Shown piece after piece: positions 1,839-53,133 of a stretch of 64,000 bases of DNA (its first letter is position 1; each line of letters opens with the position of its first letter). This DNA is from an uncultured Pseudomonadota bacterium. Lineage in GTDB: Bacteria > Pseudomonadota > Alphaproteobacteria > Rs-D84 > CACZYB01. Below the pieces are notes generated by a model. It worked only from the letters and a program-made list of their open reading frames with translations, searched no databases and had not been told where the DNA came from. The stretch is from positions 73,879 through 137,878 of the forward strand of contig CAUTSC010000001.1 of assembly GCA_963541275.1 (NCBI GenBank), in the 5' to 3' direction. Both the position numbers and the translations under genes were made by a program.

Positions 1839-2474
1839 CTACCAATTATCACACAATTTATTTACTCTTAAATACTCTTCTTGACTATCATATTCTTGAT
1901 TTTTTAAAACCAGAACTTGTTGTAATTTATCTTTTAAAACTAAAACTTCCGGTGAATTAAAAATTCCATCCAAAACTTTTTCTATCTCTACTTTCTTTCT
2001 ATTTTCTAACATATCACTATTATCAAAAATCTTGTTTTTTATCGCAGTCAAAATCATATTTCCATAATGTTTAAGTTCACTTTGATAAATTTTTACATGC
2101 CCTTTTTCATGTTCTTTTATTGCCTTATATTCACAAGAATTTTTTTTATACTTACTATCTATCAACACATCTAAATTTTTATAACCTAACAACAAAGACA
2201 CTTTTTTCAAACTAACATTTTGCTCATCAACAGGCTCAAATTCTGCATCATATTTCATACGAAAATTCGCAAACGTTAACCCCAAAATCCGGTGATTTGG
2301 TGATATTTTTAAAATCTCAGCTTTATCAACACTTTTATAAACTGGATTTCCATAATTGATAGTTGTAAATACCTTTGGAACATTCGCCCTTACATCAAAA
2401 ATAACAACAAAAACAAAAATAAACAAAGATTTAAGAAAAGCTGTCAAGATAAACCTCCACAAATTTATCCCCAT
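1839..2474 (-). CDS. Hypothetical membrane-anchored or secreted protein with an HExxH motif, a putative zinc metallopeptidase-like protein (DUF922-like). Its start overlaps the virB4 3' end.
   Basis: N-terminal hydrophobic segment. Motif EHEKGHV (HExxH). 44-nt overlap with virB4 suggests co-transcription. Confidence 0.4.
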   Translation of the reverse strand: MGINLWRFILTAFLKSLFIFVFVVIFDVRANVPKVFTTINYGNPVYKSVDKAEILKISPNHRILGLTFANFRMKYDAEFEPVDEQNVSLKKVSLLLGYKNLDVLIDSKYKKNSCEYKAIKEHEKGHVKIYQSELKHYGNMILTAIKNKIFDNSDMLENRKKVEIEKVLDGIFNSPEVLVLKDKLQQVLVLKNQEYDSQEEYLRVNKLCDNW

Positions 2475-4863
2475 GTATTTTTCTTAATTCTTCCGCAATC
2501 AAAACTTGCTTTCTGCCACTATTAAATATCTGTAAATAATTGCCAAGCCCGGACAAATCCACATTCAAAATCACAGATTCGTTTATTGACGGCTTACGAA
2601 ACAAAATAGCATATTTCAAATCTTTAAATATTTTTCCTTGAATAAATGCCATTTCTTTATTGGTTAAATTCCAATTTTCATAATCTTCAATCCTTGCTTG
2701 AACGTTCCTGAAAAATATCTGTGTTTGACATTGTCCCCTTACCACTTCACCTATACCCAACTTATCCAAAATATTGGGTTGCTGGAATGCCGCCAAATAA
2801 GCTTGACGTTTTTTTCGTCCCTCTTGAAGTCCTATTACAAAATTATTCCTAAATTCTGTATTGGCAAGCATAGGTGCAGTCTCATCAATAATAATAAGTG
2901 ATGGATCCGCCGTTCTGGCTGTGATATTTTGTATTCTGTTCATGATATAACTAACCACCGCAGGCGCCAACACTTCATCTTCAAAAATATAGGTAAAATC
3001 AAAGGTTGTGAACCTGTTTGATAAATCTAAATTATCAGATTGATTATTAAACAATAAGCCATATTGATTATCATCAACCCAACGGAATAACTCTCGCCTC
3101 ATTTTTCCAGCCGGAGAAAAACAAGATTTATAAAGGTTTTTTAAACTTCTCTTACTTACATCTAAATAATCAAACGAAGTTGTCACAGCCCTTGCAATTT
3201 CTGTCTCACTAAACGCATCAGTATTAAGTGTAATTTCCTTTAACCAGCGCCTTAAAAAAGCCCTATTTTCCGGAGTATCATCAATCTTAAACGGATTTAA
3301 ATAAGCGGTTGTTCCACCCTTTTTAATTGTATCATCCTTTGTATCACCTTGAAAATTGATATATGCCCCACCTATGGAATAAGTAAATATTTCTGCTCCT
3401 CTGTATCTATCAAAGAAAAAACACCGCAAATCTTTAAAGCGAAGCGATTGCCCAGCCAAAAACGAATAAAGCGTTGTCTTACCTTGACCTGTTGGACCAA
3501 TGGCAACAGTATGCGCCACCGCAGCATCTGCATCATCAATATGAAATTGAAATTGATACGCTGTTCCTTGGTAAGTTGGAAATATAGAAATTGCCCCCTC
3601 ACCCCAATCACATTTTGATTTACCCTCTGGTTGCTTTTCAAAATTAAAACTTGTTGCAACCGCACGTGATAGCATTTTATACATACGCGGATATTTATCA
3701 TAAGTTGGAAATTGTGAAAACCACGAAGCCTGTGCAACCCAACCCTCACGAACCGGAGTAATTCCATAAAGCCTGCAAACTTTTTCTATCTCAAACACAG
3801 ATTTTTCTAACTCTTCCAAACTATCCGCACTTACAAAAAAAGTTTCCGCATAATTTACAAGCGTTTGGTGATCTTCGTCCCCTTGCTCTATTAACGCCAG
3901 CGCATCATCAAATTGCCGTAATACGTCATATGAAAAAGTCGTGGAACTTGCCATATTTTTTTGATTATTAAGTATCATTTGAGCTTTCAGTTTTGAAATA
4001 GGGAAAAGATTATGCACCACATTTACTTCAAAATTTTTGGATAAAATATCACTTAACATCTGCTCGTCAACAACACCTGCTTGCTGCTTTATACCAACAA
4101 CAGCCATGTATTTTCTTTTTGACCCAGATGAAAACCTTATCACTCCTTTATTATCAAAAAATATCTCATCCGCAACCAAAAGTTCACTTATGCTATCATA
4201 AATCATATTTTTTGAAACTGGTGATGGCCTTGAAACCCTGTTTATAATACTTGCAAAAAATGATAACGGACTTTCACTTTTTCCATCCTCAACTAACACT
4301 TCCGCTTCATAATTAGAAAGCATCGCCATAAGATTGGAACTTGCAGTATCTAAATCCTTAATTGCATCCTTTCTGTCATTAACAGACAAAACTATATAAT
4401 GCAAATTTTGAAAAATTTCCGCTTGTGCCTTGTTCCATTTTTCACTTATATTTTTTAAAAGCTTGTTATATTCATTAACTTTTGCCTCTTGATGTATCTT
4501 TTCACGTAAAGTAAAAATCCTTGTCTCAACACTTATTTCTGCCAAACTATCTATCCATTTTTTCCGCTCATCCAACAAATTTTTAATTGTCTCACGCGCC
4601 GCAAAACTAACTGGCATTCCCTTTACTTTAAAAACCCTAACAAGAGTTCCATTTAAACAAAGTATAGTTTTTTTATCATCTAACAACCTGTTAAATGGTA
4701 AATAATCAACAAGCCTTGTATCAAATGGTTTTTTAAGAAAAATATTGGAATTTTTACTAATAAGGAGCATAAAAATCACAGACACAGAAATAACCAGCAA
4801 AGTCCACAACAAATAATCAACTTCCGTCATTTTAAAAAACAATAATTGCTGTAAATTAAACAT
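2431..4863 (-). CDS. virB4: Type IV secretion system ATPase VirB4.
   Basis: 810 aa. Walker A GPTGQGKTT; Walker B/DE region IIIDE. Length and architecture are typical of VirB4/TrbE. It sits immediately downstream of virB3. Confidence 0.9.
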   Translation of the reverse strand: MFNLQQLLFFKMTEVDYLLWTLLVISVSVIFMLLISKNSNIFLKKPFDTRLVDYLPFNRLLDDKKTILCLNGTLVRVFKVKGMPVSFAARETIKNLLDERKKWIDSLAEISVETRIFTLREKIHQEAKVNEYNKLLKNISEKWNKAQAEIFQNLHYIVLSVNDRKDAIKDLDTASSNLMAMLSNYEAEVLVEDGKSESPLSFFASIINRVSRPSPVSKNMIYDSISELLVADEIFFDNKGVIRFSSGSKRKYMAVVGIKQQAGVVDEQMLSDILSKNFEVNVVHNLFPISKLKAQMILNNQKNMASSTTFSYDVLRQFDDALALIEQGDEDHQTLVNYAETFFVSADSLEELEKSVFEIEKVCRLYGITPVREGWVAQASWFSQFPTYDKYPRMYKMLSRAVATSFNFEKQPEGKSKCDWGEGAISIFPTYQGTAYQFQFHIDDADAAVAHTVAIGPTGQGKTTLYSFLAGQSLRFKDLRCFFFDRYRGAEIFTYSIGGAYINFQGDTKDDTIKKGGTTAYLNPFKIDDTPENRAFLRRWLKEITLNTDAFSETEIARAVTTSFDYLDVSKRSLKNLYKSCFSPAGKMRRELFRWVDDNQYGLLFNNQSDNLDLSNRFTTFDFTYIFEDEVLAPAVVSYIMNRIQNITARTADPSLIIIDETAPMLANTEFRNNFVIGLQEGRKKRQAYLAAFQQPNILDKLGIGEVVRGQCQTQIFFRNVQARIEDYENWNLTNKEMAFIQGKIFKDLKYAILFRKPSINESVILNVDLSGLGNYLQIFNSGRKQVLIAEELRKIHGDKFVEVYLDSFS

Positions 4864-4879
4864 AATATTCCTATAGTTT

Positions 4880-5176
4880 TTAAGGTGTAAATTTATTTCC
4901 TTTTTCTTTTACTGCATTTTTTGTATTTCTAACTTTTATATTGCTTCTTGCTGCAATAATTGAACTTATATGCGGTTCTTTTTTTCCAATTAAAATAGCA
5001 ATTCCATGAAGCACTACAAACAAAACCACAGAAAACAAAACATAAGTTCCCTTGCCATACATTAAAAATAACACCATCAATATAACACAAAAAACAAGGT
5101 TCATTATAAACAAAGAAAATGGTGCATAAAATATCACCATAGGCTGTGCCACAGATTTAAGTATTTCCTCTTTCAT
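4880..5176 (-). CDS. virB3: Type IV secretion system protein VirB3.
   Basis: 98 aa with two hydrophobic helices (PMVIFYAPFSLFIMNLVFCVILMVLFLMYG...), 17 nt upstream of virB4. Confidence 0.65.
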   Translation of the reverse strand: MKEEILKSVAQPMVIFYAPFSLFIMNLVFCVILMVLFLMYGKGTYVLFSVVLFVVLHGIAILIGKKEPHISSIIAARSNIKVRNTKNAVKEKGNKFTP

Positions 5177-5734: not shown

Positions 5735-6088
5735 TCACCCATAATCCAATAACGATTGCAGGTTGTATAATACCATTTTTTGCAAAATTATTATCAAATT
5801 TTCACCTATATAAAAATATTTTTGTAAATTTCTTACAAGCAAGTTAAATAGCAAAAATTTTTCCACATTAAAAACTTTCTTACAAAAATTGCAAACTTTT
5901 AAAACAGGCAAATTACTATTTTCAAAAGCACACAACTCCCAACTTTGCTCTATCTCAAAATCAAGATTTTTTGCTTCATCTAACTCGCAAGTTATAGCTT
6001 TTACATGCTTGCAATTTCCATAATCTGGATCCCTTGCAAGCGTATTTACCAAAGTTAATGTGCTTATCACATCATCATATTTAAACAT
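5735..6088 (-). CDS. Small cytoplasmic protein, MFKYDDV family member 1 (paralogues at 32461..32799 and 33828..34166). Function unknown; candidate immunity or partner protein of the adjacent secreted-protein cassette.
   Basis: AGGAG RBS then ATG at 6088. Conserved N-terminus MFKYDDVISTLTLVNTLARDP(D/N)YGN and C-terminus LLVRNLQKYFY...NLIIxLQKMVLYNL. No signal peptide. Confidence 0.6.
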   Translation of the reverse strand: MFKYDDVISTLTLVNTLARDPDYGNCKHVKAITCELDEAKNLDFEIEQSWELCAFENSNLPVLKVCNFCKKVFNVEKFLLFNLLVRNLQKYFYIGENLIIILQKMVLYNLQSLLDYG

Positions 6089-8911: not shown

Positions 8912-8986
8912 TGGCTGGGGTGGCTGGATTCGAACCAACGAATGGCGGTACCAGAAACCGCTGCCTTACCGCTTGGCGACACCCCA
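8912..8986 (-). tRNA. tRNA-Gln (anticodon CUG).
   Basis: Manual fold: acceptor UGGGGUG/CACCCCA, anticodon stem GCGGU/ACCGC, loop UUCUGGU, T-loop GGUUCGAAUCC, CCA encoded. Closely resembles E. coli tRNA-Gln. Confidence 0.85.
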
Positions 8987-9319: not shown

Positions 9320-9325
9320 AAAAAT

Positions 9326-9772
9326 TTATCTCTGTTTTTGATTTTTCAAAAGTTCTTTTTTTAAATCGTTTAAAGTTAAATATTTCAAAACTAAACTTTC
9401 ATACCCTTTTACACTATTTTTTAATTTTAAAAGTAAATCTTCATAATTTTTATCAACTTTTTCATTTCTATTTTTAAATCTTAACTTATCCATAAGGTTA
9501 TTTATTTTTGCCTCTAAAACCAAAATATTTTTGATAAATTTATTAAATTCCACAGCAATAGATGGATTTTTATTTGCAATAATATAAGGAATATATTCAT
9601 GTAAAGGATCTGCAAAATTATAAAATTTCATAATCCTTTGATTTTTAAGTGCATGATAATGTTTTGCAAGATCACTAAACCTGGTATCTTCATTATGCAC
9701 AACAGATAAAATTTTATCTATCTCATCCTGAGTCAACATATTAGTTTGAGATACAACCTTTTTCATAATCAC
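9326..9772 (-). CDS. Hypothetical protein (148 aa), intact copy of the duplicated gene that follows tRNA-Gln.
   Basis: ORF with AGGAG-like RBS; homologous to pseudogene 8507..8896. Confidence 0.5.
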   Translation of the reverse strand: MIMKKVVSQTNMLTQDEIDKILSVVHNEDTRFSDLAKHYHALKNQRIMKFYNFADPLHEYIPYIIANKNPSIAVEFNKFIKNILVLEAKINNLMDKLRFKNRNEKVDKNYEDLLLKLKNSVKGYESLVLKYLTLNDLKKELLKNQKQR

Positions 9773-9788
9773 TCCTTAAAACTCTTAT

Positions 9789-9863
9789 TGGCTGGGGTGG
9801 CTGGATTCGAACCAACGAATGGCGGAACCAAAATCCGCTGCCTTACCGCTTGGCAACACCCCA
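9789..9863 (-). tRNA. tRNA-Gln (anticodon UUG).
   Basis: Same scaffold as the 8912..8986 tRNA. Anticodon loop UUUUGGU; anticodon stem GCGGA/UCCGC. Confidence 0.85.
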
Positions 9864-9869
9864 AAAGAC

Positions 9870-10176
9870 CACATTACTATAAAAATTTTATAAACAAAAA
9901 TCAACCTTTATTTTTTAATAAAAATATGTGAATAAATTGTTAATAGATTGTGAATAACTTTCATTTTTTATCTATATTTTTATAAACTAAAAAGTTATTA
10001 ACATTTTTACTAACAATCATAAATTTTTATAAAAGTTATAAACATGTTAATAGATTCCGCACAACATAGTAAATATAAACAATTTTATTTTAAAATTTTA
10101 ATTTTTTCCGTGAATAAATAAGTGAATAAAATTTTATAAACATTATCAACAATACAACAACAACTATTATATTTAT
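9870..10176. other. Candidate chromosomal replication origin (DnaA-box cluster in an AT-rich intergenic region next to rsmG).
   Basis: Two exact matches to TGTGNATAA (the reverse complement of TTATNCACA) at ~9932 and ~9950. One-mismatch boxes CGTGAATAA and AGTGAATAA at ~10109 and ~10122, and TTATCAACA at ~10152. ~80% AT. Directly repeated TGTTAATAGATT at ~9938 and ~10046. Confidence 0.4.
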
Positions 10177-10731
10177 TTATAATTTAGTTATATTTTTAAT
10201 GTAAATAATATTTCCATTTTTTACTTTAAAAACTTTATAATCAAAACAAAATTTTTTCATTGCATCATCTATCTCACTTTTCACATTAACACCTTTTAAT
10301 AAAAAAAATTCTGTATTTTTATTTATAATATTAAAAGTAAGTTTTATAAAATTTTCTATACTTGCAAATGCACGTCCAATAATAACATCTGCTTTTACAT
10401 TTTTTATATTTTCAACTCTGCAATTTAAAATATTCACATCCAAATTATACAGATTTTTAATCTGATTTAAAAATATACATTTTCTTTCATCACTTTCAAC
10501 AAGGGTGATATTTTTAATTCCTGAAATAGCAAGTACCAAAGCCGGAAAACCAGCACCACTTCCAACATCAAAAATATTTTTTTTATCCTTTAAAAATGAG
10601 GTAAGTAATAAACTATTTTCAAAATGACGCTCCCATAAATCATTTATTGTACTATTACTGATAAGATTTATAGTTTTTTGCCATTTTAAAAGCGTTTCAA
10701 TATATAAATCAAAAATTTTCTTATCAATCAT
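10177..10731 (-). CDS. rsmG: 16S rRNA (guanine527-N7)-methyltransferase RsmG (GidB).
   Basis: SAM-binding motif DVGSGAGFPALVLAI, with length and architecture typical of RsmG. Confidence 0.85.
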   Translation of the reverse strand: MIDKKIFDLYIETLLKWQKTINLISNSTINDLWERHFENSLLLTSFLKDKKNIFDVGSGAGFPALVLAISGIKNITLVESDERKCIFLNQIKNLYNLDVNILNCRVENIKNVKADVIIGRAFASIENFIKLTFNIINKNTEFFLLKGVNVKSEIDDAMKKFCFDYKVFKVKNGNIIYIKNITKL

Positions 10732-12675: not shown

Positions 12676-13611
12676 TTATTGCTTTTTCATTCCAAACACC
12701 CCATCAAGAGTATAACCAGTTGTACCTTGTTGCATATTTACTTTATATCCACCAATTATTTCTTTATTATCAAGAATTTTATGCTTCCAAACAGGCTTTA
12801 AATCTTCACGATTCATAAAATGTAAATTAGGATCTGACAATCTCCAAGTATCAACATCACCAACAGTACCATTTTCTAAATTTACATTTTTTACAGTCAT
12901 TGTTTTATTCCATTTATTATATTTAAAAATAAGGTCGCCCGTTGTTTGATTTGCACCTATTGTCATTTTTGCAGTTCCGGTTAAATTATCATAAGAAAAT
13001 TTATTTCCCGGTTCTCTTGTTGTTAATATTGCACTAGTTGTACCAGAAAAAGTTATATCTTGTTCTGGTTTCACAAATGGAACTTCTTTATCCTTTTGTG
13101 TAAAAATCACAGATTCATAAGCTTTTACTTTTTTACCTCCAAAAGGTACTAAAAATTCTAAAAATCCATAATTACCATAACTTAAATCACTTTTTGCAAT
13201 TTTTAATTTTGTATCCATTTCAACAATTTGACTTGTACCATCTGAATTATTTAACTTATGCTTCATTTTTTTATATTCTGTTTCATCAAAAACTTCACCT
13301 TTTTTCATTTTATTTACATCAAAAGCAAAAGTTTGTTCATTATCTTTTACTGTATATTGCCATTTATCTCCAACTTTTTTTAATCCTACATCACCACTAT
13401 TAGAATTAAATTCTGTGCCAGATGGTAATTGTGCCAACTTTCCTGCAATATCTTTTGGTACTTCTGGTTTTGGAGTTGGTGTTGGCGTATTTCCACCTGG
13501 TTTTTGTGTCTGTGTTTCAGGTTGCATTTTTTGATATACTCCACCTTTACTGCTACACCCAGCTACCATTACAACACTTGCCAAAACTAACATTGATACT
13601 TTGTTTTTCAT
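12676..13611 (-). CDS. Putative lipoprotein with a Pro/Thr-rich linker.
   Basis: Lipobox LVLASVVMVAGCSS; linker GGNTPTPTPKPEVP; C-terminal domain of unknown function. Confidence 0.6.
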   Translation of the reverse strand: MKNKVSMLVLASVVMVAGCSSKGGVYQKMQPETQTQKPGGNTPTPTPKPEVPKDIAGKLAQLPSGTEFNSNSGDVGLKKVGDKWQYTVKDNEQTFAFDVNKMKKGEVFDETEYKKMKHKLNNSDGTSQIVEMDTKLKIAKSDLSYGNYGFLEFLVPFGGKKVKAYESVIFTQKDKEVPFVKPEQDITFSGTTSAILTTREPGNKFSYDNLTGTAKMTIGANQTTGDLIFKYNKWNKTMTVKNVNLENGTVGDVDTWRLSDPNLHFMNREDLKPVWKHKILDNKEIIGGYKVNMQQGTTGYTLDGVFGMKKQ

Positions 13612-13723
13612 AGTTTTTTCCTTTTTTTGTTAATAAATCACTTTGTTTTATTGTTATATCAACAAAGGATTCAAAATTGCCTGTAAATATTATAATGTTA
13701 AAAATTTGATTTTACAAGAATTT

Positions 13724-15772
<2,049 letters not shown>

Positions 15773-15777
15773 TCATA

Positions 15778-16494
15778 TTATAATAAATTATATAATGATA
15801 ATACAGACATTGCAGCAGTTTCCGCCCTTAAAATCTGTGAACCAAGTGATATACTTACAGCCGGTGTTTTTGACAATATTTCAAATTCACTATTATCAAA
15901 ACCACCCTCTGGTCCTATTAAAAAAGAAACTGGTTTATCATGTAATTGTTGTAATAACCCAGCTTTATTTTTAATCTCCACCCTTTCATCCAGGTAAATT
16001 AAATTCCGCATATTAAAATCAAAACTTGCAATCTTTTCTGTAAATGAAACAAGTTTATTTACTTTTGGAATTGAAAGTCGTCTTGACTGCTCGGATGCTT
16101 GTTTTACAATTTCATTCATCCTTAAAATATTTACATCTTTAACCGCAGAATTTTTCGTCAAAACAGGTGATAAAGTTTTCACACCCAACTCACAAGTTTT
16201 TTCAATTAAAAAATCCTGTCTATTATGTTTGATAGGAGAAAAAATTATTTCTGTATCAGGTAATTTTTCATCATCACTTTTTCTTGTTTGCAAAACCAAA
16301 TTCAAAACTAAATCATTTTTTTTTATATCAATAACTTTTGCTTCAAACTCTCCACACATTTCATTAAAAACATACACAATAAATCCACATTTTACCCGCA
16401 TCACATTTTTAAGATAATGAAAATCTTTGCCGCAAATAACAATTTCAGCACCCAAAGACAAATTTTGTTCATTATAAATGCGAATTTTTGACAT
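15778..16494 (-). CDS. rsmE: 16S rRNA (uracil1498-N3)-methyltransferase RsmE.
   Basis: 238 aa; C-terminal LIGPEGGFDNSEFEIL motif characteristic of RsmE. Confidence 0.75.
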   Translation of the reverse strand: MSKIRIYNEQNLSLGAEIVICGKDFHYLKNVMRVKCGFIVYVFNEMCGEFEAKVIDIKKNDLVLNLVLQTRKSDDEKLPDTEIIFSPIKHNRQDFLIEKTCELGVKTLSPVLTKNSAVKDVNILRMNEIVKQASEQSRRLSIPKVNKLVSFTEKIASFDFNMRNLIYLDERVEIKNKAGLLQQLHDKPVSFLIGPEGGFDNSEFEILSKTPAVSISLGSQILRAETAAMSVLSLYNLL

Positions 16495-16567
16495 ATAGTT
16501 TTGTTCTTTTCAAATTTTATGCTATTATATAGTAAATAAATTTAAAAACATTAAAATTTTAAAAGAT

Positions 16568-17350
16568 ATGAAAGATTTTTTTATAAAATTAAAATACTAT
16601 ATTCTTATTATATTGTCTGTTATCACAATAATAACAACTATTTTTATTTTAAGGAACAAACTTATTATACAAAAAGTTGATATTTTAAACAATATAAAAA
16701 TTGAATTTACTGGCAAACTTTTCATTCCACACAAACTTGCACATTTTCAAATTAAAAATAAACTTGTCCCTTTTGTAAGTAATGTTGATAATTTAACAGG
16801 GCTTAATTTAAAAACAATTTACAATGAACTTGAAAAAACAGCTTGGATTGAAAACTTGGCAGTGATAAGGATGTATCCAAACACACTTAAAATAATAATA
16901 AAACCTTATGATGTAATAGCATGTAAAGAAGAAGTTAACAAAATAACCGGTGATATTGAAAACTATCCTATCACAAAAGATGGACAATTATTAAAAGAAA
17001 ATGTTTTTTGCACTCGTATTAAATTTTCAAATGCAGATGATGTTCATATAACTGATATAGAAAATTTAAATGAAATAATGATTCCATCTGTGCCACAATT
17101 TTTAAAAACCCTGTCATTATATAATGATTTATTAAAATATATAAGTGGTATTGAAATCACAAATGAACTTTGTTTTAACTTAAAATTTTTTGATGGTGAA
17201 AATTTATTGCTTGTGAAATTGCCAGAAGATTATAAATCAGGTCTTGATAAATTGCTTTTGATGCAAACTGCAGATTCAATTTTAAGTAAGGATATAGAAG
17301 TTTTGGATTTAAGGATCAATGATAAACCTCTTGTAAAATTAAGGAAATAA
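16568..17350 (+). CDS. ftsQ: Cell division protein FtsQ-like (POTRA-containing).
   Basis: N-terminal transmembrane segment, 260 aa, immediately upstream of ftsA with a 1-nt gap. Confidence 0.6.
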   Translation: MKDFFIKLKYYILIILSVITIITTIFILRNKLIIQKVDILNNIKIEFTGKLFIPHKLAHFQIKNKLVPFVSNVDNLTGLNLKTIYNELEKTAWIENLAVIRMYPNTLKIIIKPYDVIACKEEVNKITGDIENYPITKDGQLLKENVFCTRIKFSNADDVHITDIENLNEIMIPSVPQFLKTLSLYNDLLKYISGIEITNELCFNLKFFDGENLLLVKLPEDYKSGLDKLLLMQTADSILSKDIEVLDLRINDKPLVKLRK

Positions 17351-17351
17351 A

Positions 17352-18590
17352 ATGAAACAATTAAACACAATTTTACTTCTTGAAATTGGCAGCGATAAAA
17401 TAATCGGTGTTTTATGTAAAGTCATAAAAGTAAATAATAAAAATACACTGGAATTTATAACAAATGAAGAAGTTAAAACACAAGGTATATTTGCAGGGAA
17501 AATAGTTGACAGATCAAAACTTTTAACATCTCTTAAATCTTTAAAAGATAACATAATACAAAAATCCGGTGTTAATATAAAAGACACAGCTTTAATAACA
17601 TCAAGTTTTGATTATAATTCAAAATTTATAACTGCAACAAATGATTTTACTTTTACCGAAGAAATCACACAAGAAACAATTGATAAAATAAAACAAAAAT
17701 TAAATTACACAGGAATAGTTGATTTAAATAAAGAGCAAATAATTCACATAATTCCAATAATATATAAAGTAAATAATAAACAGGTTGCAGATCCAATTGG
17801 GTTAAAAGCAAACAAACTTGAAATAAAATGTCATGTTTTGACTATACCGGTGGAAGATTATCAAGAAATAAAAACCTTGCTTGAAAAACTGGGGCTTGAT
17901 GTTTTTCATATAATTGCTGGAATCCGAAGCTCTATTATATCATCCCTTACAACCGATGAACAAAAATTAACAACTATGACAATAGATATAGGTAAAGGTA
18001 ATATCCAGCTGGGAATTATGAAAAACAACACACTTATTTATTGCCATAATTTTTCTGGTGGTACATCAAAAATAACAAAAAATTTAATGAAATATTTTAA
18101 TATAAATTATAACGAGGCAGTAAGAATAAAAAATAAATATGGTGTGAAAAAACCGGATTCAATTGATTTTTCACAAACGGCAGAAATAAATATTTTAGAT
18201 GCCGAAGGTGAAGAACAAAAAACAACAATAGATCTGTATAAAATTTTAAACATCACTTATAAATCTTTTGAAAAAATAGTAAATGACATAAAGCTTACTA
18301 TAAAAAATTTTCCAATAGAAAAAATCATCCTTGTTGGTGGTGTAAAAATGCTTGGAGTTGAAAATTTATTCAAAGAAAAATTTGATAAATTGATAAGAAT
18401 TGCAAAACCAGAAATTCCAGTCGCTATGCCAGCAGAATTTAAAGACGAAAAATATTCATCAATAACCGGCGCTTTTATATATATGGAAGATTTTATAAAG
18501 GATAAACAATTAACCTTTTCTTACAGCACAAAAATAAAAGAAAGGATAATAGAAGCCTTTAACCGATTTTTAAAAGAAAATTTTGAATAA
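17352..18590 (+). CDS. ftsA: Cell division protein FtsA.
   Basis: 412 aa actin-like ATPase with DIGKGNIQLGIM...NFSGGTSKITKNL phosphate-binding region; gene order ftsQ-ftsA. Confidence 0.8.
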   Translation: MKQLNTILLLEIGSDKIIGVLCKVIKVNNKNTLEFITNEEVKTQGIFAGKIVDRSKLLTSLKSLKDNIIQKSGVNIKDTALITSSFDYNSKFITATNDFTFTEEITQETIDKIKQKLNYTGIVDLNKEQIIHIIPIIYKVNNKQVADPIGLKANKLEIKCHVLTIPVEDYQEIKTLLEKLGLDVFHIIAGIRSSIISSLTTDEQKLTTMTIDIGKGNIQLGIMKNNTLIYCHNFSGGTSKITKNLMKYFNINYNEAVRIKNKYGVKKPDSIDFSQTAEINILDAEGEEQKTTIDLYKILNITYKSFEKIVNDIKLTIKNFPIEKIILVGGVKMLGVENLFKEKFDKLIRIAKPEIPVAMPAEFKDEKYSSITGAFIYMEDFIKDKQLTFSYSTKIKERIIEAFNRFLKENFE

Positions 18591-18724
18591 ACACTTGACA
18601 AATTCTTTTAATTTTCTATAATACATCTATATTTCATAAAATTTTAAATATGTGGAATATGTGATAAACGGCGAGTTTCGCTCTTTATCATTTTTTGTAT
18701 TATAAAAACGAAAGGTAAAAAATT

Positions 18725-19177
18725 ATGGCAGTTAAAATAAGACTTGCAAGACGCGGCTCAAAAAAAAGACCATTTTATCACATAGTAGTTGCAAACAGCC
18801 GTGATCCAAGAGATGGCAATTTTATTGAAAAAGTTGGAACTTATAATCCAATGCTTGAAAAAGGCGATGAAAAGAAAATAACACTTGTATCTGACAGAAT
18901 AAAATACTGGCTTTCAACTGGTGCACAACCAACAGACAGGGTTGCAAGATTTTTGGGTGATGCGGGTTTGATGGAAAAATATACTATTAAATCACAAACT
19001 AAACAACCACAACCAAAGGCAAAAGCTCAGGAACGTGCAAAACAACTTGCTGAGAAAGCTGCAGCAGCAGAAGAAGCAAAAAAACAAGCCGAAGAGCAAG
19101 CAAAAGCAGAATTTGAAGATAAAAAACCGGAATCTGCTCCTGCTGAAGCAACTGAAACTACAACAGAAAATGCTTAA
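18725..19177 (+). CDS. rpsP: 30S ribosomal protein S16 with a Lys/Ala/Glu-rich C-terminal extension.
   Basis: [42 protein letters not shown]. Confidence 0.9.
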
Positions 19178-19244
19178 ACTTTTTTGTTTAAATTTAAATC
19201 ATGAGTGTGATAATTATTGCACTCATTTTTTATAAAGGGCATAT

Positions 19245-19748
19245 ATGACAGATACAAATAAAATCCTTGTTGCAAAAATTATCTCGGCACATGGTATTCG
19301 TGGCGCTGTAAAAATATCAACTTTCACCTGCAATCCAAAGGATGTTTTTAACTATTCCCCACTTTACGATTCTCTAAATAATCAATACAACATTCAATTC
19401 GTTGGAACAGGGAAAAATTCCACAATCATAGCAAATGTAAATGATATAACAGATAGAAACGAAGCTGAACAATTAAAAGGAATTGAACTTTTTGCACCTC
19501 GTGATAAAATCACCACAAATGATGAAATTTTATTTAACGACCTGATAGGTTTCACCGCTACATCAAACGGAAAAAAAATTGGCATTATAACCGACATTTT
19601 AAATTATGGGGCAGGGGATATTTTGGAAATAAATACCGGAAATGATAAAAAAACAGCACTTATTTCCTATAACGAATACTCAATAAAACATGTAAATAAA
19701 GATACAAAGGAGATAGAAATTGACGAACAACACCTCGTGGAAAGTTAA
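19245..19748 (+). CDS. rimM: Ribosome maturation factor RimM.
   Basis: ILVAKIISAHGIRGAVKI N-terminus; rpsP-rimM-trmD synteny. Confidence 0.85.
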   Translation: MTDTNKILVAKIISAHGIRGAVKISTFTCNPKDVFNYSPLYDSLNNQYNIQFVGTGKNSTIIANVNDITDRNEAEQLKGIELFAPRDKITTNDEILFNDLIGFTATSNGKKIGIITDILNYGAGDILEINTGNDKKTALISYNEYSIKHVNKDTKEIEIDEQHLVES

Positions 19749-20424
19749 CATTTTAACACTTTTTCCGGCTATTTTTGAATCTCTTAATATCTCTATGTGT
19801 AAAAGGGCAATTTTAAATAACATCTTAAAATTGAACCTTATAAACATCCGCGACTTTGCAATTGATAATTATAAATCTGTTGATGATACAATATATGGCG
19901 GTGGGGCAGGGCAGTTATTAAAACCAGACGTATTGGGTCGCGCAATTGATAGTTGCTATGATAAACAAAAACCGGCTGGATCAATTATTTATTTATCACC
20001 AAGGGGTAAAGTTTTTAATCAAAACATAGCGGAAAGTTTAAGTAAAGAACCGGAAACAACCTTTATCTGCGGTCATTACGAGGGTATAGATCAAAGGGTG
20101 ATAGAATATTATAACATCACAGAATTAAGCATAGGTGATTTTGTTTTATCAGGGGGCGAATACGCCCTTATCCCAATCATAGATGCAGTTGCAAGATTAA
20201 AAGATGGCGTACTTGGTTCAAGCGATTCGCTGCATGAAGAAAGCTTTTCAAAAACATTAAATGGCATGCTTGAATACCCACAATACACAAAACCAGCAAT
20301 ATGGAATGATTTAAAAGTACCGGATATTTTACTATCCGGCCATCACAAAAACATACAAACCTGGCGCTATGAACAATCCCAAAAACTCACAGAGCAAACC
20401 CGCCCAGATTTAATAAAAAAATAA
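19720..20424 (+). CDS. trmD: tRNA (guanine37-N1)-methyltransferase TrmD.
   Basis: ILTLFPAIFESL start region, ICGHYEGIDQRVIE and SIGDFVLSGGE motifs. Confidence 0.9.
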   Translation: MTNNTSWKVNILTLFPAIFESLNISMCKRAILNNILKLNLINIRDFAIDNYKSVDDTIYGGGAGQLLKPDVLGRAIDSCYDKQKPAGSIIYLSPRGKVFNQNIAESLSKEPETTFICGHYEGIDQRVIEYYNITELSIGDFVLSGGEYALIPIIDAVARLKDGVLGSSDSLHEESFSKTLNGMLEYPQYTKPAIWNDLKVPDILLSGHHKNIQTWRYEQSQKLTEQTRPDLIKK

Positions 20425-20506
20425 ATTTTCCAGTTTTTTAGCTATTTTTATATGTTTTTTTATAAATAAAACTTTGTTATATTTAAAAAACAATTCCACC
20501 AGGAAT

Positions 20507-20530
20507 CTATTTTTCTGTAAAGGAAAATAG
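20507..20530. repeat. Solitary copy of the hairpin repeat (CTATTTTTC-TGTAAA-GGAAAATAG) downstream of the glycine-rich gene.
   Basis: Flanks CCACCAGGAAT...GGCTATTAA match the other copies. Confidence 0.6.
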
Positions 20531-20572
20531 GCTATTAATTTTTAAAATATTATAAAATAACCAGTATTTTTA

Positions 20573-21127
20573 TTACCCTATATATTTATAAATTTTAACA
20601 TATCCATCACCTGAATTTCCATTACCTGATGAAGCACAACTACCAGCATTTACACGACCCTCATCATCAGGAAGGTTTCTAATAAAATAACCACCTTTTG
20701 AACATTCCTTACCTCCATCAAATCCTGTATAGTCCCCTTTTTCTTTTTTTATTTTATAATCATCACAACTTCCTTTACCAGGGATTCCACTAGCTAGTAA
20801 AATAGCAGAGTATGATATTTTACCCCCTGAAGTAAAACTAAAATATTCACAATTTTTATCATAACTGTCTACCGAGTCTAGATCTAAACCTTTACCTCCA
20901 ACTGCACATCCATAACCTCCTCCCCCACCTATTCCAATATGGTTCCAAAAACTTCTACAACCTCCACCACCTCCTCCAGACACATTTATTACTAAACTTT
21001 TATCTTCGAAGGCAAAAGCAGAGCCAGCTCCACCTCCACCACCGAACGAATAATCATCATACCTTCCAGATTTTCCAGATTTTCCAGATTCTCCTGCAAA
21101 TCCAACACAAGCATTATAATATTTCAT
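20573..21127 (-). CDS. Glycine-rich protein, the variable C-terminal portion of cassette B. Either a separate ATGA-coupled ORF or the frameshifted continuation of 21124..21564.
   Basis: Gly runs GGGGGAGSAF and SGGGGGGCRSF...GIGGGGGYGCAVGGKG. Its start overlaps the upstream stop as ATGA. The upstream ORF already ends in the same Gly-rich style (VAGGAGGRGSSDTGRSYAGGIGGLGE). Confidence 0.5.
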   Translation of the reverse strand: MKYYNACVGFAGESGKSGKSGRYDDYSFGGGGGAGSAFAFEDKSLVINVSGGGGGGCRSFWNHIGIGGGGGYGCAVGGKGLDLDSVDSYDKNCEYFSFTSGGKISYSAILLASGIPGKGSCDDYKIKKEKGDYTGFDGGKECSKGGYFIRNLPDDEGRVNAGSCASSGNGNSGDGYVKIYKYIG

Positions 21128-21564
21128 TTTTTTAGCAAAAATACTTTTTGAACTACTTCACCAAGTCCTCCAATACCACCAGCATAACTACGCCCAGTAT
21201 CAGAACTACCTCGTCCACCAGCACCACCTGCAACTATCACTTTATATATTCCAATGTTTAAACTATTTCTTAAATCATTGTTATACATTAGTTGCCAATA
21301 TTTATCATTATTTATTTGCGATTCTGCAAATTTTAAATTCATTTCCAACATAGCAATTTTTTCTTTTTCTTTACTATTTACAATACCATTTGCAATAATT
21401 TCTGCCAACTTGTCTGGATTTTGCAAACTATTTGATACACTTTCATTTATAGTATCTTTCCACCAACTTTTCTTTGGAACGCAAGTATAAAATTCTTGGG
21501 CGTTTACCATAGTTGCCACAAGCATTGCAATCAATAAAGTTATTTTACTAGTTTTTTTCATCAT
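21124..21564 (-). CDS. Secreted protein, cassette B second gene: conserved N-terminal module and the start of a glycine-rich variable domain.
   Basis: MMKKTSKITLLIAMLVATMVNAQEFYTCVPKKSWWKDT, near-identical at nucleotide level to copies A and C for ~110 nt, then divergent. Confidence 0.65.
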   Translation of the reverse strand: MMKKTSKITLLIAMLVATMVNAQEFYTCVPKKSWWKDTINESVSNSLQNPDKLAEIIANGIVNSKEKEKIAMLEMNLKFAESQINNDKYWQLMYNNDLRNSLNIGIYKVIVAGGAGGRGSSDTGRSYAGGIGGLGEVVQKVFLLKK

Positions 21565-21584
21565 AGTTTTCTCCTTTCTTTTTG

Positions 21585-22112
21585 TTATGATTGTTTAAAC
21601 ATTTCGTATCCTGACGGACAATTGTTTCTTAAATCAATAAGCTCCATTCCATCTGGACATTTTCCATTTGTGATTTTTTTTAACTCGTACCCATCTGGAC
21701 AGATTCCTTTACTTGGCGCAAACAGATCCATCCCTGCGGGGCAATTTCCACCACTTACTTTTATTCCAGTTGTACCATCCGGGCATACAACTTGATTGCA
21801 GCTTTGGAATGTTGTTTTGTTTAGTATCGTTCCAACTGGACAGCTTTTACATAACCTATCACTTGGCGACCAATAATTATTCGCTTTCAATCCAGTTGTT
21901 GCATCCACCCTGTTGCATTTTACTTTGCAACCTGGTTTATCACATATTGGTTCATCCGGTCTCCCACAAATTTCCTTACCCCCGGAACTTATTCCATATT
22001 TTGCTAGCGTCTCGTGTATAAGCTTCTTTGTTGCTTCACTTGCACCAAAAGAACCGGATTTACACAGCAATAAGTTGACCAAAATTGCATACTTGATTTT
22101 TGTTTTTTTCAT
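21585..22112 (-). CDS. Secreted cysteine-rich CPxG-repeat protein, cassette B.
   Basis: 175 aa, colinear with 7088..7597 and 35494..36021; signal peptide plus about 16 Cys. Confidence 0.7.
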   Translation of the reverse strand: MKKTKIKYAILVNLLLCKSGSFGASEATKKLIHETLAKYGISSGGKEICGRPDEPICDKPGCKVKCNRVDATTGLKANNYWSPSDRLCKSCPVGTILNKTTFQSCNQVVCPDGTTGIKVSGGNCPAGMDLFAPSKGICPDGYELKKITNGKCPDGMELIDLRNNCPSGYEMFKQS

Positions 22113-27974: not shown

Positions 27975-28475
27975 CTAATTAACAGAGCTGTTTCTTTTTA
28001 AAATACGGGCTTTATTTTTATCCCATTCTCTCTGCTTAATTGTTTCACGTTTATCAATTTTATTTTTACCTGTTCCAACCCCTATTAACAATTTTGCAAG
28101 CCCTTTTTCATTAAAAAATAATTTAAGCGGGATAATAGTAATATGCTCTTTACTATAAAGACCAATCAAACGTTTAATCTCTTTTTTTTGTAATAAAAGT
28201 TGCCTTGGTCTTTTTTCTGTATGTATGGCAAAGGGATTATTTGCCTCATATTTACCTATTGTAATATTGTTTATAAGTATGTTGTTATCACTTGGTGTTG
28301 CATACCCATCCACAATATTGGCATGACCCATTCTCAAGCTTTTAACTTCACTACCTGTAAGGGATAATCCAGCAACAAAAGTTTCCATAATTGTATAATT
28401 AAAACCGGCTTTTCTGTTTTCTGCAACAACGCCGGTTGATATAAAATGTTTAACTTTTGCTTTACTATTCACCAT
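27975..28475 (-). CDS. smpB: SsrA-binding protein SmpB.
   Basis: GFNYTIMETFVAGLSLTGSEVKSLR...HEP...RPRQLLLQKKEI. Confidence 0.9.
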   Translation of the reverse strand: MVNSKAKVKHFISTGVVAENRKAGFNYTIMETFVAGLSLTGSEVKSLRMGHANIVDGYATPSDNNILINNITIGKYEANNPFAIHTEKRPRQLLLQKKEIKRLIGLYSKEHITIIPLKLFFNEKGLAKLLIGVGTGKNKIDKRETIKQREWDKNKARILKRNSSVN

Positions 28476-31591: not shown

Positions 31592-32114
31592 TTTATAACA
31601 GCAAAAACAACCGGCTTTTTTAGTTGTAAATAGTTTGAAGTGAAAGAATGTTAGATGAGCTTTTTCGTAAAATAAAATACTTGCATATTTTATAGAGTTT
31701 TTTTATTTATATACTTCTCTTATATATATTTTCATGTGAAATAAAAATATTTTATATAATTTTTTCATAAACCCTAGGTATTTTTTGCTTAAGTTTTTTA
31801 CTTTTGTGGCAGATTTTTCTCATTCACAAAAACTTTCTTTTTATAAACATTTTTGATGTTTAATGCTAACAATAATTTTTGAAAGTTTTTGATAAAAATA
31901 ATCACTATTTTTCACTTACAAAGATTTTGAAATAAAAAAATTATATAAGTTTTTTTGTAAAACAAAAATCCAAATATCTATTATGTAAAATATTTCTCAC
32001 TCACAAAATTTTTACCAGAATAAGTTTATAAAATTGGCGTATTGTTCAGTGAATTTTTTTCACATTTATACATTTGTATAAAATATTTTGTTTTTATGAA
32101 ATGAAAATTATTTC

Positions 32115-32190
32115 TGGTGCACTTGAGAGGATTCAAACCTCTGACCTTTGGTTCCGGAAACCACTGCTCTATTCCCTGAGCTACAAGTGC
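32115..32190 (-). tRNA. tRNA-Arg (anticodon CCG).
   Basis: Manual fold: acceptor GCACUUG/CAAGUGC, D-arm GCUC-AGGGAAU-AGAGC, anticodon loop UUCCGGA, T-arm AGAGG-UUUGAAU-CCUCU, CCA encoded. Confidence 0.8.
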
Positions 32191-32293
32191 ATCCCCACAT
32201 TCTATTCCCCTCTTTCCCATAAGTCAAAACAAGTTAGAAAATTTTAAAATAATAAAATTTAAATATTAATACAAAAATTTTTCCGCCAGTACT

Positions 32294-32315
32294 CTATTTG
32301 ATGGATATCAAATAG
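32294..32315. repeat. Hairpin repeat variant (CTATTTGAT-GG-ATATCAAATAG) with an alternative but fully complementary stem.
   Basis: Same flanks (CCAGTACT...GCATCTTATTTTAT) as the other family members. Confidence 0.5.
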
Positions 32316-32412
32316 GCATCTTATTTTATATTAAAAATTTTCATTTTATGTATCGATAAAAATTCTATCCATATAATTTTGTATTATTTTGAATAAACTT
32401 CCTACAGAACTT

Positions 32413-32436
32413 CTATTTTTCTTTAATGAAAAATAG
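32413..32436. repeat. Hairpin repeat (CTATTTTTC-TTTAATG-AAAAATAG) just downstream of MFKYDDV gene 2.
   Basis: Same motif as 5657-5680 and 33753-33776. Confidence 0.6.
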
Positions 32437-32460
32437 TCTATCAGTATATTTTTGAAACAA

Positions 32461-32799
32461 TTATCCATATCCGCACTTTAAGCACAGGTTATACAATACC
32501 ATCTTTTGCAAAAATATAATCAAATTTTCACAAACATTTACATATCTATAAAAATATTTTTGTAAATTTCTTACAAGCAACTTAAATCGCAAAAATTTCT
32601 TTGCTACAGCAAAAATATTTTTATAAAAATCGCTATTTTTAAAAACAACAAAATTGCAACCTTGCTCTGTTTTTAAATAAATATTTTGAAAATTTTTATC
32701 GCAATTGCAATTTACTTGCTTGATATTCCCATAATTTGGATCTCTTGCAAGCGTATTTACCAAAGTTAATGTGCTTATCACATCATCATATTTAAACAT
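32461..32799 (-). CDS. MFKYDDV-family small protein, copy 2 (apparently orphan, with no adjacent secreted-protein genes).
   Basis: AGGAG RBS plus ATG at 32799; MFKYDDVISTLTLVNTLARDPNYGNIKQVNCNCD... Confidence 0.6.
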   Translation of the reverse strand: MFKYDDVISTLTLVNTLARDPNYGNIKQVNCNCDKNFQNIYLKTEQGCNFVVFKNSDFYKNIFAVAKKFLRFKLLVRNLQKYFYRYVNVCENLIIFLQKMVLYNLCLKCGYG

Positions 32800-33115
32800 A
32801 ATTTTTCTCCTTTTTTGTTTGTTAATTTTAATTATTGTCACACCCACGATTCACTACCATCCCAGCTTTGCCAAAATCAAAACCACAATAACAGCAAAAA
32901 TTTTTAAATAATTTTCCTAAAAAATAGGATTTAAAATAAAAATTCACTCCAATATCTTTTTTTTTATAAAGATATTAGCCTGCAAGCTTTGCTTGCATCA
33001 ATAAAAATTCAGCTTATTTTTTGTAAAATTATTACTCTAACGAATGGATTTTGTAGACTCCACCCCTGCCGTATTTTACATATATTTACCCGATTTTTAA
33101 ATTTCAAGAGGTAAA

Positions 33116-33256
33116 GTGAAAAAAATTTTATTTTTTGAGATTTTTTTTGCAAACTTTGTTTGCGGCCAACATTTTTCTTTAGAAAAATATTGGGATGAAA
33201 TCTTTAATAAAATTTATATTACAACAACTACCTCTACCCACATCACAGCAAATTAA
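33116..33256 (+). CDS. Possible small ORF (GTG start, 46 aa), paralogous to 34488..34688. Its coding status is uncertain.
   Basis: Conserved core FANFVCGQHFS(L/K)EKYWDEIFNKI shared with the other copy. It is preceded by the conserved CCACCCCTGCCGTATTTTACATATAT...AATTTCAAGAG element. Confidence 0.2.
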   Translation: MKKILFFEIFFANFVCGQHFSLEKYWDEIFNKIYITTTTSTHITAN

Positions 33257-33752
33257 ACATCTATTCTCTGGAAATTTTGGGTATAGCTTACCCTTTGGTT
33301 AATTATAATATAATCATTATTTTTTAAAAGTCAAGAACAAAATAAAAATTTTTTACATTTTTTTGATAAAAATTTTCAAAATGGCGGATTTCTGCGGTTT
33401 TTTTAAACGTGGAAGAAGAGATAGACATTATATACAGAGGAAGAGTAAATATCTGTGGAAGAAGATTGGAATCTGCAATAAAGATTTATATCTATATAAT
33501 TTTTACTTTGTAAAAATTGGCAAATATATTTATTGATAAATATATTTGAATGATTATTTTTTTATTTAAATTCTGTAAAACAATTAATATAACTAGCATA
33601 GCATTGATAGCGGATTTCTGCGATTTTTTGCGGTATGGTAGTAAAGGGGGAGCCAATATAGAGAAAAACAACAAAAATATTTGATGGATAGTTGTTTAAT
33701 TACACTTCCTTATAAAATGATGATACATTATCTACAATTATCCACCAGGAAT

Positions 33753-33776
33753 CTATTTTTCTTTAATGAAAAATAG
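33753..33776. repeat. Hairpin repeat downstream of MFKYDDV gene 3.
   Basis: CTATTTTTC-TTTAATG-AAAAATAG with CCACCAGGAAT flank and a downstream T-run. Confidence 0.6.
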
Positions 33777-33827
33777 ACTGCCAGTATTTTTTATTAAAAA
33801 TGTTGCCTGCAAAAATTATTGAACTCT

Positions 33828-34166
33828 TCATCCATAATCCAATAATAACTGCAGATTATACAACACCATCTTTTGTAAAAATATTATTAAGTTTTTACAA
33901 ACATTTACATATCTATAAAAATATTTTTGTAAATTTTTTACAAGCAATTTAAACTGCAAGATTTTTTCCGCGTTAAAAACTTTCTTAAAAAAATTCCTAT
34001 TTTTAAAAAAGCACAACTCACAATCTTGCTCTGTTATTAAATAAATATTTTGCAACTTTTCTATATCGCAATTGCAATTTACTTGCTTGATATTTCCATA
34101 ATTTGGATCTCTTGCAAGCGTATTTACCAAAGTTAACGTGCTTATCACATCATCATATTTAAACAT
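33828..34166 (-). CDS. MFKYDDV-family small protein, copy 3.
   Basis: 112 aa; AGGAGAAAAATT RBS; MFKYDDVISTLTLVNTLARDPNYGNIKQVNCNCD...LLVKNLQKYFYRYVNVCKNLIIFLQKMVLYNL. Confidence 0.6.
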   Translation of the reverse strand: MFKYDDVISTLTLVNTLARDPNYGNIKQVNCNCDIEKLQNIYLITEQDCELCFFKNRNFFKKVFNAEKILQFKLLVKNLQKYFYRYVNVCKNLIIFLQKMVLYNLQLLLDYG

Positions 34167-34487
34167 AATTTTTCTCCTTTTTTATTTGTTAATGTTAATA
34201 GATTTTCCACCCACAACTCACCATCACCATAGCTTTGCATAAAAACAAAACCACAATGACAGCAAAAATTTAAAATAATTTTCCCAGTAAATAGGATTTA
34301 AAATAAAAATTCATTCCAATATCTTTTTTATAAAGATATTGGCCTGCAAGCTTTGCTTGCATAACTAAAATTTTATTTAATTGTTTGTAAGATTTTACTG
34401 CAATGGGCAATTTTGATACAACTCACCCCTGCCGTATTTTATATATATGTATTCAATTTTTAAATTTCAAGAGGGCAAACGAAAAAA

Positions 34488-34688
34488 ATGAATTTTTTTA
34501 CTTTTTTCAAAATTTTTTTATTCTCTAGTTTTTTTGCAAACTTCGTTTGCGGCCAACATTTTTCTAAAGAAAAATATTGGGATGAAATCTTTAATAAAAT
34601 TCACATAGCAACAACTATCTATGCCCGCACCATACAAATCAAAAATCTATTCTCTGGACATTTTGGGTATAGTTTACCCTTTGGTTAA
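34488..34688 (+). CDS. Possible small ORF (66 aa) with a hydrophobic N-terminus, lying on the opposite strand between cassette C and MFKYDDV gene 3.
   Basis: ATG preceded by CAAGAGGGCAAACGAAAAAAATG; conserved core with 33116..33256; ends in the palindrome-containing GGGTATAGTTTACCC region. Confidence 0.2.
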   Translation: MNFFTFFKIFLFSSFFANFVCGQHFSKEKYWDEIFNKIHIATTIYARTIQIKNLFSGHFGYSLPFG

Positions 34689-34797
34689 CTATAATATAAT
34701 CACTATTTTTTAAAAATCAAGAACAAAATGAAAATTTTTTGTCTTTTTTTATAAAAATTTTCAAAATGGCGGATTTTCACAAAAATATATCAAAATT

Positions 34798-47997: not shown

Positions 47998-48121
47998 TAC
48001 ATAATTGCTTCATTATGCTAAATACAATAACTTTAATAGTCAACAATTAAAATAATCTTGATAAAAACTTCATTATAAGATATTTTTTGAAATCAGTTAA
48101 AATTTAAGAAAGGATAAAATT

Positions 48122-52799: not shown

Positions 52800-53078
52800 A
52801 TGAATAAAACAGAAATAATTGAAGCACTTGCAAATCAAACTGATATTTCAAAAGCAAAAGCTGGTGAAGTTCTTGATGCATTACTTAATCTTATAACAAA
52901 ATCATTAAAGAAAAAAGAAGAAGTAAAATTTATCGGTTTTGGAACATTCGCTGTTTCAAAAAGAAAAGCAACAAAAGGTCGCAACCCAAGAACTGGTGAA
53001 GAAATTAAAATTGCAGCAAGTTTACAAGCAAAATTTAAACCAGGTAAAGCATTAAAAGATACCATCAATGGAAAATAA
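52800..53078 (+). CDS. hup: DNA-binding protein HU.
   Basis: MNKTEIIEALA...FIGFGTFAVSKRKATKGRNPRTGEEIKIAASLQAKFKPGKALKD. Confidence 0.9.
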   Translation: MNKTEIIEALANQTDISKAKAGEVLDALLNLITKSLKKKEEVKFIGFGTFAVSKRKATKGRNPRTGEEIKIAASLQAKFKPGKALKDTINGK

Positions 53079-53133
53079 AGTTTAAAAACTAGAAGTTTAC
53101 TTCTTATTTTTAATTAACCAAAATCCTTCGTAA

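Follow-up and report, generated by a model that had tools for sequence, protein, structure and literature searches.

The 64,000-nucleotide stretch of DNA analysed here (the window; 29% GC) contains an intergenic spacer of 313 bp at 9864-10176 that is 84% AT, in a neighbourhood of 80-86% AT. It is flanked on the low-coordinate side by a minus-strand tRNA-Gln(ttg) gene (9789-9863) and on the other side by rsmG (gidB; 10177-10731, minus strand; Pfam GidB PF02527, E = 4.8e-43). The entire spacer is occupied by a DnaA-box element, and the rsmG stop codon abuts the box cluster. A preliminary description of this DNA had pointed to an AT-rich intergenic region of about 300 bp adjoining rsmG/gidB, and the boundaries given above bear this out. 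The window also encodes VirB3/VirB4, a Tim44-like protein, SecB, LpxC and similar proteins, and proteins labelled 'MAG: Rickettsiales bacterium' share 68-72% identity with its AspS; the host lineage looks like an uncultured Rickettsiales-like alphaproteobacterium.

Scoring with at most one mismatch to TTATNCACA identified nine boxes in the 313-bp spacer. The total came to about twelve 9-mers, with two perfect, seven one-mismatch and three two-mismatch boxes, the last of which (9938, 10007 and 10045) coincide with better boxes in relatives. The twelve sites extend over 260 bp and occur in both orientations. The two exact boxes reported earlier near 9932 and 9950 proved to be perfect TGTGAATAA copies at 9927-9935 and 9949-9957, and the one-mismatch boxes reported near 10109 and 10122 were located as CGTGAATAA at 10109-10117 and AGTGAATAA at 10121-10129. 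A further box, placed near 10152, is TTATCAACA at 10143-10151 and carries one mismatch. The 12-nt direct repeat that the preliminary description set near 9938 and 10046 is TGTTAATAGATT at 9938 and 10045; this repeat is itself a degenerate box that reads CTATTAACA on the other strand. Absent from that description were TTATAAACA at both 10036 and 10134, TTATTAACA at 9995 and all three two-mismatch boxes.

For comparison, contigs of seven related metagenomic lineages (denoted below by L and a number) were reached through RsmG homologues, and eight orthologous spacers were aligned. Close to the tRNA end, a triple head-to-tail array on the minus strand, TTATTCACA-AT-CTATTAACA-AT-TTATTCACA (9927..9957), has 2-bp gaps and an 11-bp period and is the best-conserved block across all eight aligned sequences. 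E. coli oriC contains arrays of low-affinity DnaA sites and, by analogy with these, the spacing of the triple array would suit a DnaA oligomer. On the plus strand, TTATTAACA (9995-10003) and TTACTAACA (10007-10015) form a pair with a 3-bp gap (9995..10015), whose orthologues are TGTTAATAA-AAA-TGTTAATAA in L007 and L009 and TGTGAATAA in L008. Two opposed boxes abut each other at 10036..10053, TTATAAACA on the plus strand (10036-10044) and CTATTAACA on the minus strand (10045-10053), a position kept in all relatives as TTATTAACA, TTATGCACA or TTATTCACA. The minus-strand tandem at 10109..10129 consists of TTATTCACT (10121-10129) and TTATTCACG (10109-10117), also 3 bp apart, and L007, L008 and L004 have a perfect TTATTCACA as the orthologue of the second box. 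Finally, the plus-strand boxes TTATAAACA and TTATCAACA (10134..10151) directly abut and point to the rsmG end of the spacer; the stretch TGTTGATAATGTTTATAA is invariant in the alignment of the window with L007-L009.

The density of boxes in the spacer far exceeds expectation. In first-order Markov simulations on the spacer's own composition (n = 20,000), 1.0 box with at most one mismatch was expected, and none of the 20,000 simulations reached the nine observed; the two perfect boxes had a P value of 6e-4. The densest 320-bp stretch, at the cluster, had 10 boxes, whereas the maximum for any other part of the window was 4, and the spacer contains four of the five GTGAATAA octamers found in the window, all on the same strand. 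Box counts over the whole 64-kb window are at the chance level, and the signal is one of local clustering. The preliminary description had considered that equally dense clusters might exist in other AT-rich spacers; the window has 26 further intergenic regions of 100 bp or more, of which none was comparable, none contained a perfect box and none exceeded one box per 100 bp. A second DnaA-box cluster was found neither in the 64-kb window nor in the relatives' loci (up to 20 kb each).

RsmG identity to the window is 74-78% for L007-L009, 63-64% for L010-L011, 62% for L001-L005 and 43% for the outgroup L013. In the closer relatives (L007-L011), rsmG is followed by a 275-330-bp spacer and then by tRNA-Gln, and boxes occupy the same positions. 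All eight orthologous spacers share five conserved box positions, and five of the eight lineage spacers compared have perfect TTATNCACA boxes. Variation inside the boxes is limited to positions 5 and 6 (TTATTCACA, TTATTAACA, TTATCAACA), position 6 often being A instead of the consensus C. Identity over the whole spacer (0.72-0.75) is not higher than that at rsmG third codon positions (0.71-0.75), and conservation was therefore assessed per box column. Conservation in box columns was 0.87 versus 0.66 in the rest of the spacer for the close relatives, 0.74 versus 0.40 for L010-L011, and 0.68 versus 0.39 for a clade that retains parAB. The alignments thus indicate that selection is acting on the boxes.

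The parAB-bearing sister clade (L001-L005) has the order rsmG, parA, parB and then a 260-300-bp spacer with five to six boxes. A perfect parS, TGTTTCACGTGAAACA, is located between rsmG and parA in L001 and L004, and the post-parB spacer of L004 contains four perfect TTATNCACA boxes. An nhmmer profile built from the window's clade alone matched the post-parB spacer (E = 6e-10 for L004/L005 and 6e-6 for L002), the match being colinear over about 270 positions. Thus, the element is ancestral, and parS-parAB was lost at the locus in the window's clade (compared intervals: window 9320-10176, L001 10565-12452 and L004 10562-12452). Searches by tblastn with ParA and ParB of L001 and L004 detected no homologue of either anywhere in the 64-kb window, and the 16-bp parS palindrome TGTTNCACGTGAAACA had no match in the spacer, nor did any match across the window have fewer than two mismatches. 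Separately, parS-like 16-mers with two mismatches occur at 14399-14414 (in ligA) and 28041-28056 (in smpB), and matches with up to three mismatches number 10 in the window versus 2.8 expected, a count that 1 of 100 shuffles reaches.

In the outgroup L013, hemE comes after rsmG-parA-parB, in the opposite orientation, and next to it is a 525-bp spacer (13439-13963). This spacer, upstream of hemE, contains five perfect TTATCCACA/TGTGGATAA boxes and weaker ones, and rsmG-parAB is transcribed toward the cluster. The locus of L013 is a textbook alphaproteobacterial origin neighbourhood, the published origin position in this class being hemE/parB-linked (PMC1914354, PMC5144681, PMC4741004). The same three papers cover the hemE-linked origins with which the window's spacer can be compared, Caulobacter Cori and the predicted origins of Rickettsia, Wolbachia and sphingomonads. 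L013 shares their exact order of parB, hemE and box cluster. The window's spacer resembles these origins as an AT-rich intergenic region in the 300-500-bp range with at least five TTATNCACA-type boxes; it differs in that the locus lacks hemE, being flanked by rsmG and tRNA-Gln, and in that the spacer has no CtrA TTAA-N7-TTAA site, no conserved IHF site and no skew switch. No URO-D match was found among the window proteins scanned, and hemE was present only in L013. The family element gave no nhmmer match to the origin-like spacer of L013, so only position and motif link the two.

A box cluster after parB is not a generic feature, since a ParB scan of JGI metagenomes found one within 3 kb downstream at only 2 of 40 unrelated parB loci from distant bacteria. 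No cluster adjoins parB in the outgroups L012 and L014. Genes that indicate an origin are found next to the element: rsmG in the window, parB in L001-L005, and hemE and parB around the analogous cluster of L013. We infer an ancestral order of rsmG-parA-parB-(hemE)-origin. The absence of hemE from the locus would be common to the whole family, and the later loss of parS-parAB in the window's clade would have left rsmG, the box array and tRNA-Gln. The gid and par genes serve as indicators in origin-prediction tools. Like the gidA/gidB-parA-parB type of oriC (gidA-oriC-mioC in E. coli and Vibrio), the element abuts gidB, and in the sister lineages it adjoins parB, close to a perfect parS. In contrast to that type, transcription of rsmG-parAB runs toward the element and not away, mnmG (gidA) is no immediate neighbour, and the window has no parAB.

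Two stretches are candidates for the unwinding element. The first, a 27-nt tract of A/T only at 10081..10107, adjoins the tandem boxes at 10109-10129, and an A/T-rich tract occupies its alignment position in all relatives; the function proposed for it is conjectural, and it is one of 52 A/T-only runs of at least 20 nt in the window. The second, at 10152..10223, is the least stable duplex of the locus and overlaps the last rsmG codons. It begins with a (CAA)3 tract followed by T-centred triplets, and the 60-bp duplex starting at 10164 is the third least stable in the window (top 0.02%) and adjoins tandem boxes oriented toward it. Conserved 13-mer repeats were not found in the spacer.

This second arrangement is also similar to the basal unwinding system (BUS), for which the permissive pattern is a box or tandem boxes, a spacer of up to 16 bp and at least three central-A trinucleotides on one strand (PMC8287927). 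Here, the co-oriented tandem boxes at 10134-10151 are followed by a 14-nt spacer and at least four NTN triplets (central T, central A on the other strand), which lead into the least stable duplex. The locus differs from the BUS in having no GC-rich spacer, and the pattern is expected by chance, (NAN)x3 being nearly always encountered in 84% AT DNA. When read by eye against the criteria of PMC8287927, it also occurred after the triple array, and DnaA-trios are indistinguishable from background. CtrA sites (TTAA-N7-TTAA) are neither present in the window's spacer nor conserved across the eight orthologous spacers, across which no conserved IHF, GANTC or GATC site was found either.

These analyses confirm that the spacer at 9864-10176 is a genuine, selectively conserved DnaA-box array of the origin type. 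DnaA binding and a site of unwinding are predicted here from sequence, and replication may start here in this genome. DnaA would bind the stronger boxes (TTATTCACA) first and would next fill the weaker neighbours (TTATTAACA, TTATCAACA and TTATAAACA), which lie 0-3 bp apart and head-to-tail. The resulting oligomer would open an adjacent A/T tract, either 10081-10107 or the unstable rsmG-proximal stretch 10152-10223. Architecture, conservation, uniqueness and position together favour the reading of the spacer as oriC, and the record of strand composition suggests that forks pass through the cluster. On balance, we put at about even the chance that the spacer is a functional oriC, the lineage's version of the alphaproteobacterial hemE/parB-linked origin.

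An active bidirectional origin is expected where replication-associated strand composition changes sign. Strand composition was measured on the coding strand, as the GC skew of third codon positions (GC3 skew), which separates gene-strand from replication-strand effects. Between 1 and 9.8 kb, minus-strand genes had a GC3 skew of +0.546 ± 0.035 and no plus-strand gene was scored; between 10.1 and 22.2 kb, minus-strand genes had +0.431 ± 0.050 and plus-strand genes -0.171 ± 0.055 (P = 0.005). The pattern extended up to 48 kb (minus- versus plus-strand genes, P = 1.7e-6). Thus, within the 64 kb examined, the two flanks of the cluster, 10 kb and 38 kb long, share one polarity without a switch at the element, and the minus strand looks G-rich and leading-type on both of them. 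Gene orientation agrees with the skew, 26 of the 39 genes between 10 and 48 kb pointing toward the cluster. In L010 and L011, the left flank has the gene orientation and skew polarity of the window, which makes a recent inversion an unlikely cause of the missing switch.

Skew in this group follows the strand and not the gene. VirB4 has a GC3 skew of +0.55 in the window and of -0.28/-0.47 in L001/L004, where it is inverted, and a periplasmic-binding-protein gene has -0.35 in the window versus +0.51 in L011, which indicates that skew has equilibrated since these lineages split; a recent rearrangement still short of equilibrium is therefore also an unlikely cause of the missing switch. The inverted block comprises VirB3-VirB4 (window 2431-5176; L001 14742-17480; L004 17704-20442), and its opposite skew sign shows that it is the replication strand that skew tracks in this group. 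Corrected skew in the parAB clade does step at the element or within a few kb of it: L001 goes from -0.18 to +0.39, and L004 goes from +0.09 to +0.51.

The preliminary description had proposed the position of the GC-skew minimum as a check; as far as the 64-kb window shows, the cumulative minimum is near 48 kb and not near 10 kb. The window has no other inflection than this one, which falls at the aspS|trxB divergence near 48.0 kb (47998-48121, flanks 46-51 kb); gene orientation also flips at that point, from 36 of 50 genes on the minus strand before to 16 of 17 on the plus strand after. Raw skew changes sign there, and strand-corrected GC3 skew only drops to about zero, with no reversal. An origin at this inflection was rejected, the 124-bp aspS|trxB spacer being devoid of boxes and none lying within 10 kb. 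No dif site, the marker of a terminus, was found. What stands of the original proposal of a candidate chromosomal origin is therefore the unique and conserved DnaA-box cluster, its post-parB homologue and its origin-like position; the polarity switch in GC3 skew is missing.

The main alternative is that the cluster is not, or is no longer, an origin. It could instead be an origin-proximal locus for DnaA titration or regulation, or a retired ancestral origin that still binds DnaA, and forks from elsewhere would traverse it. DnaA-box clusters outside origins include datA and DARS in E. coli and clusters in B. subtilis, one of which is in the jag-thdF spacer of the gid/par neighbourhood. Like datA, DARS1/2 and the B. 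subtilis clusters, the element in the window consists of DnaA boxes inside a replichore, away from a switch in strand composition. Equal polarity on the two flanks, with the left flanks of L010 and L011 alike, and a gene orientation concordant with the skew are as this possibility would have it. The boxes are also degraded toward TTATTAACA in the window's clade, with no perfect box in L010 and L011 and two in the window versus four in L004, and the same clade is without parS-parAB at the locus. However, no other origin can be seen, as the window's sole inflection (at about 48 kb) lacks boxes within 10 kb, and the position of the element is homologous to that of the canonical origin. Dense, selectively conserved head-to-tail arrays with boxes 0-3 bp apart resemble an origin more than a titration site; unlike datA and DARS, the element has many more and more tightly phased boxes, no conserved IHF site and no second cluster in 64 kb. 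A non-origin locus further predicts equal flank skew in L001 and L004, but their flanks differ. We give this explanation appreciable weight, short of an even chance.

A related scenario would accommodate both the selection on the boxes and the skew. The array would be an ancestral one of the origin type, still under selection in the clade without ParABS, that no longer sits at the polarity switch. Either the origin has moved and the old one is kept as a DnaA-binding regulatory element, or replication is strongly asymmetric. We regard this scenario as possible though rather unlikely.

The spacer might alternatively be a control region for tRNA-Gln and the genes behind it, its repeats being bound by another AT-reading factor or a nucleoid protein, or by DnaA as a transcription factor only. 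A promoter-like site, TTGATT-17-TATAGT, does lie before tRNA-Gln on the minus strand (9876..9904). It was identified by consensus match only, its TTGATT is conserved in L007-L009, and the boxes are upstream of it on the same molecule; the frequent A in place of the consensus C at box position 6 could also speak for a factor other than DnaA. Against this, the element remains linked to rsmG/parB, and its downstream neighbour varies (tRNA-Gln here, DUF1653 in L004 and an 83-aa ORF in L001), twelve sites over 260 bp in both orientations go far beyond what a promoter needs, and perfect TTATNCACA boxes occur in five of eight lineage spacers. A role confined to gene control is accordingly improbable. 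The search of Rfam over 9700-10300 returned nothing except tRNA, and no rsmG terminator was found in the spacer.

That the motifs are chance matches in AT-rich DNA, as box counts at the chance level across the window might suggest, or decayed remnants of parA/parB, which formerly occupied the neighbouring position, is a notion to which almost no probability attaches, given the 0 of 20,000 simulations and the box-specific conservation on the one hand, and on the other the negative tblastn searches with ParA and ParB and the coexistence of the element with intact parAB in L001-L005.

If the spacer is the origin, the start of replication would be fixed for an uncultured, AT-rich, Rickettsiales-like lineage, and the canonical rsmG-parAB-hemE-ori neighbourhood would be shown to be reducible to rsmG-ori-tRNA. 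The assignment would also be useful for annotating metagenome-assembled genomes, for coverage-based estimates of growth rate and for orienting replichores. The less ordinary part of the result is a conserved origin-like DnaA array at odds with the record of strand composition. Should this mismatch hold genome-wide, the locus would provide a natural example of a DnaA cluster that derives from an origin and has parted from the polarity switch, coinciding with the loss of ParABS at the locus.

Several further features of the neighbourhood were recorded. The tRNA-Gln gene beside the spacer belongs to a near-identical pair (ctg and ttg; 8912-8986 and 9789-9863 in the window) whose place and orientation vary by lineage, with copies at 4825-4899 and 6014-6087 in L001 and at 5998-6071 and 12976-13050 in L004. 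The L004 genes are an inverted pair around the segment from uvrD through the box cluster to DUF1653. The independent assemblies of L008, L009 and L010 all stop within tRNA-Gln(ttg), and that of L007 stops just short of it; the tRNA-Gln neighbourhood is probably a hot spot of recombination and assembly. Directly after the tRNA-Gln is a minus-strand ORF of 148 aa (9326-9772) with no Pfam match, and L011 has a 143-aa ORF at the same position.

About 10 kb (12676-22112) separate the TPR gene from uvrD in the window, the two being adjacent in L001, L004, L010 and L011. This segment carries a 311-aa ORF, ligA, rsmE, ftsA, rpsP-rimM-trmD and three ORFs without an assigned function. An intergenic gap of 456 bp at 52.7 kb turned out to be only apparent, as it encodes a short HU-like DNA-binding protein (52801-53079, plus strand) upstream of obg. 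In the ORF-poor stretch at 31592-34797, a tRNA-Arg gene and two small ORFs lie among gaps of 523, 270, 980 and 631 bp; the stretch may hold decayed genes or small genes that escaped annotation.
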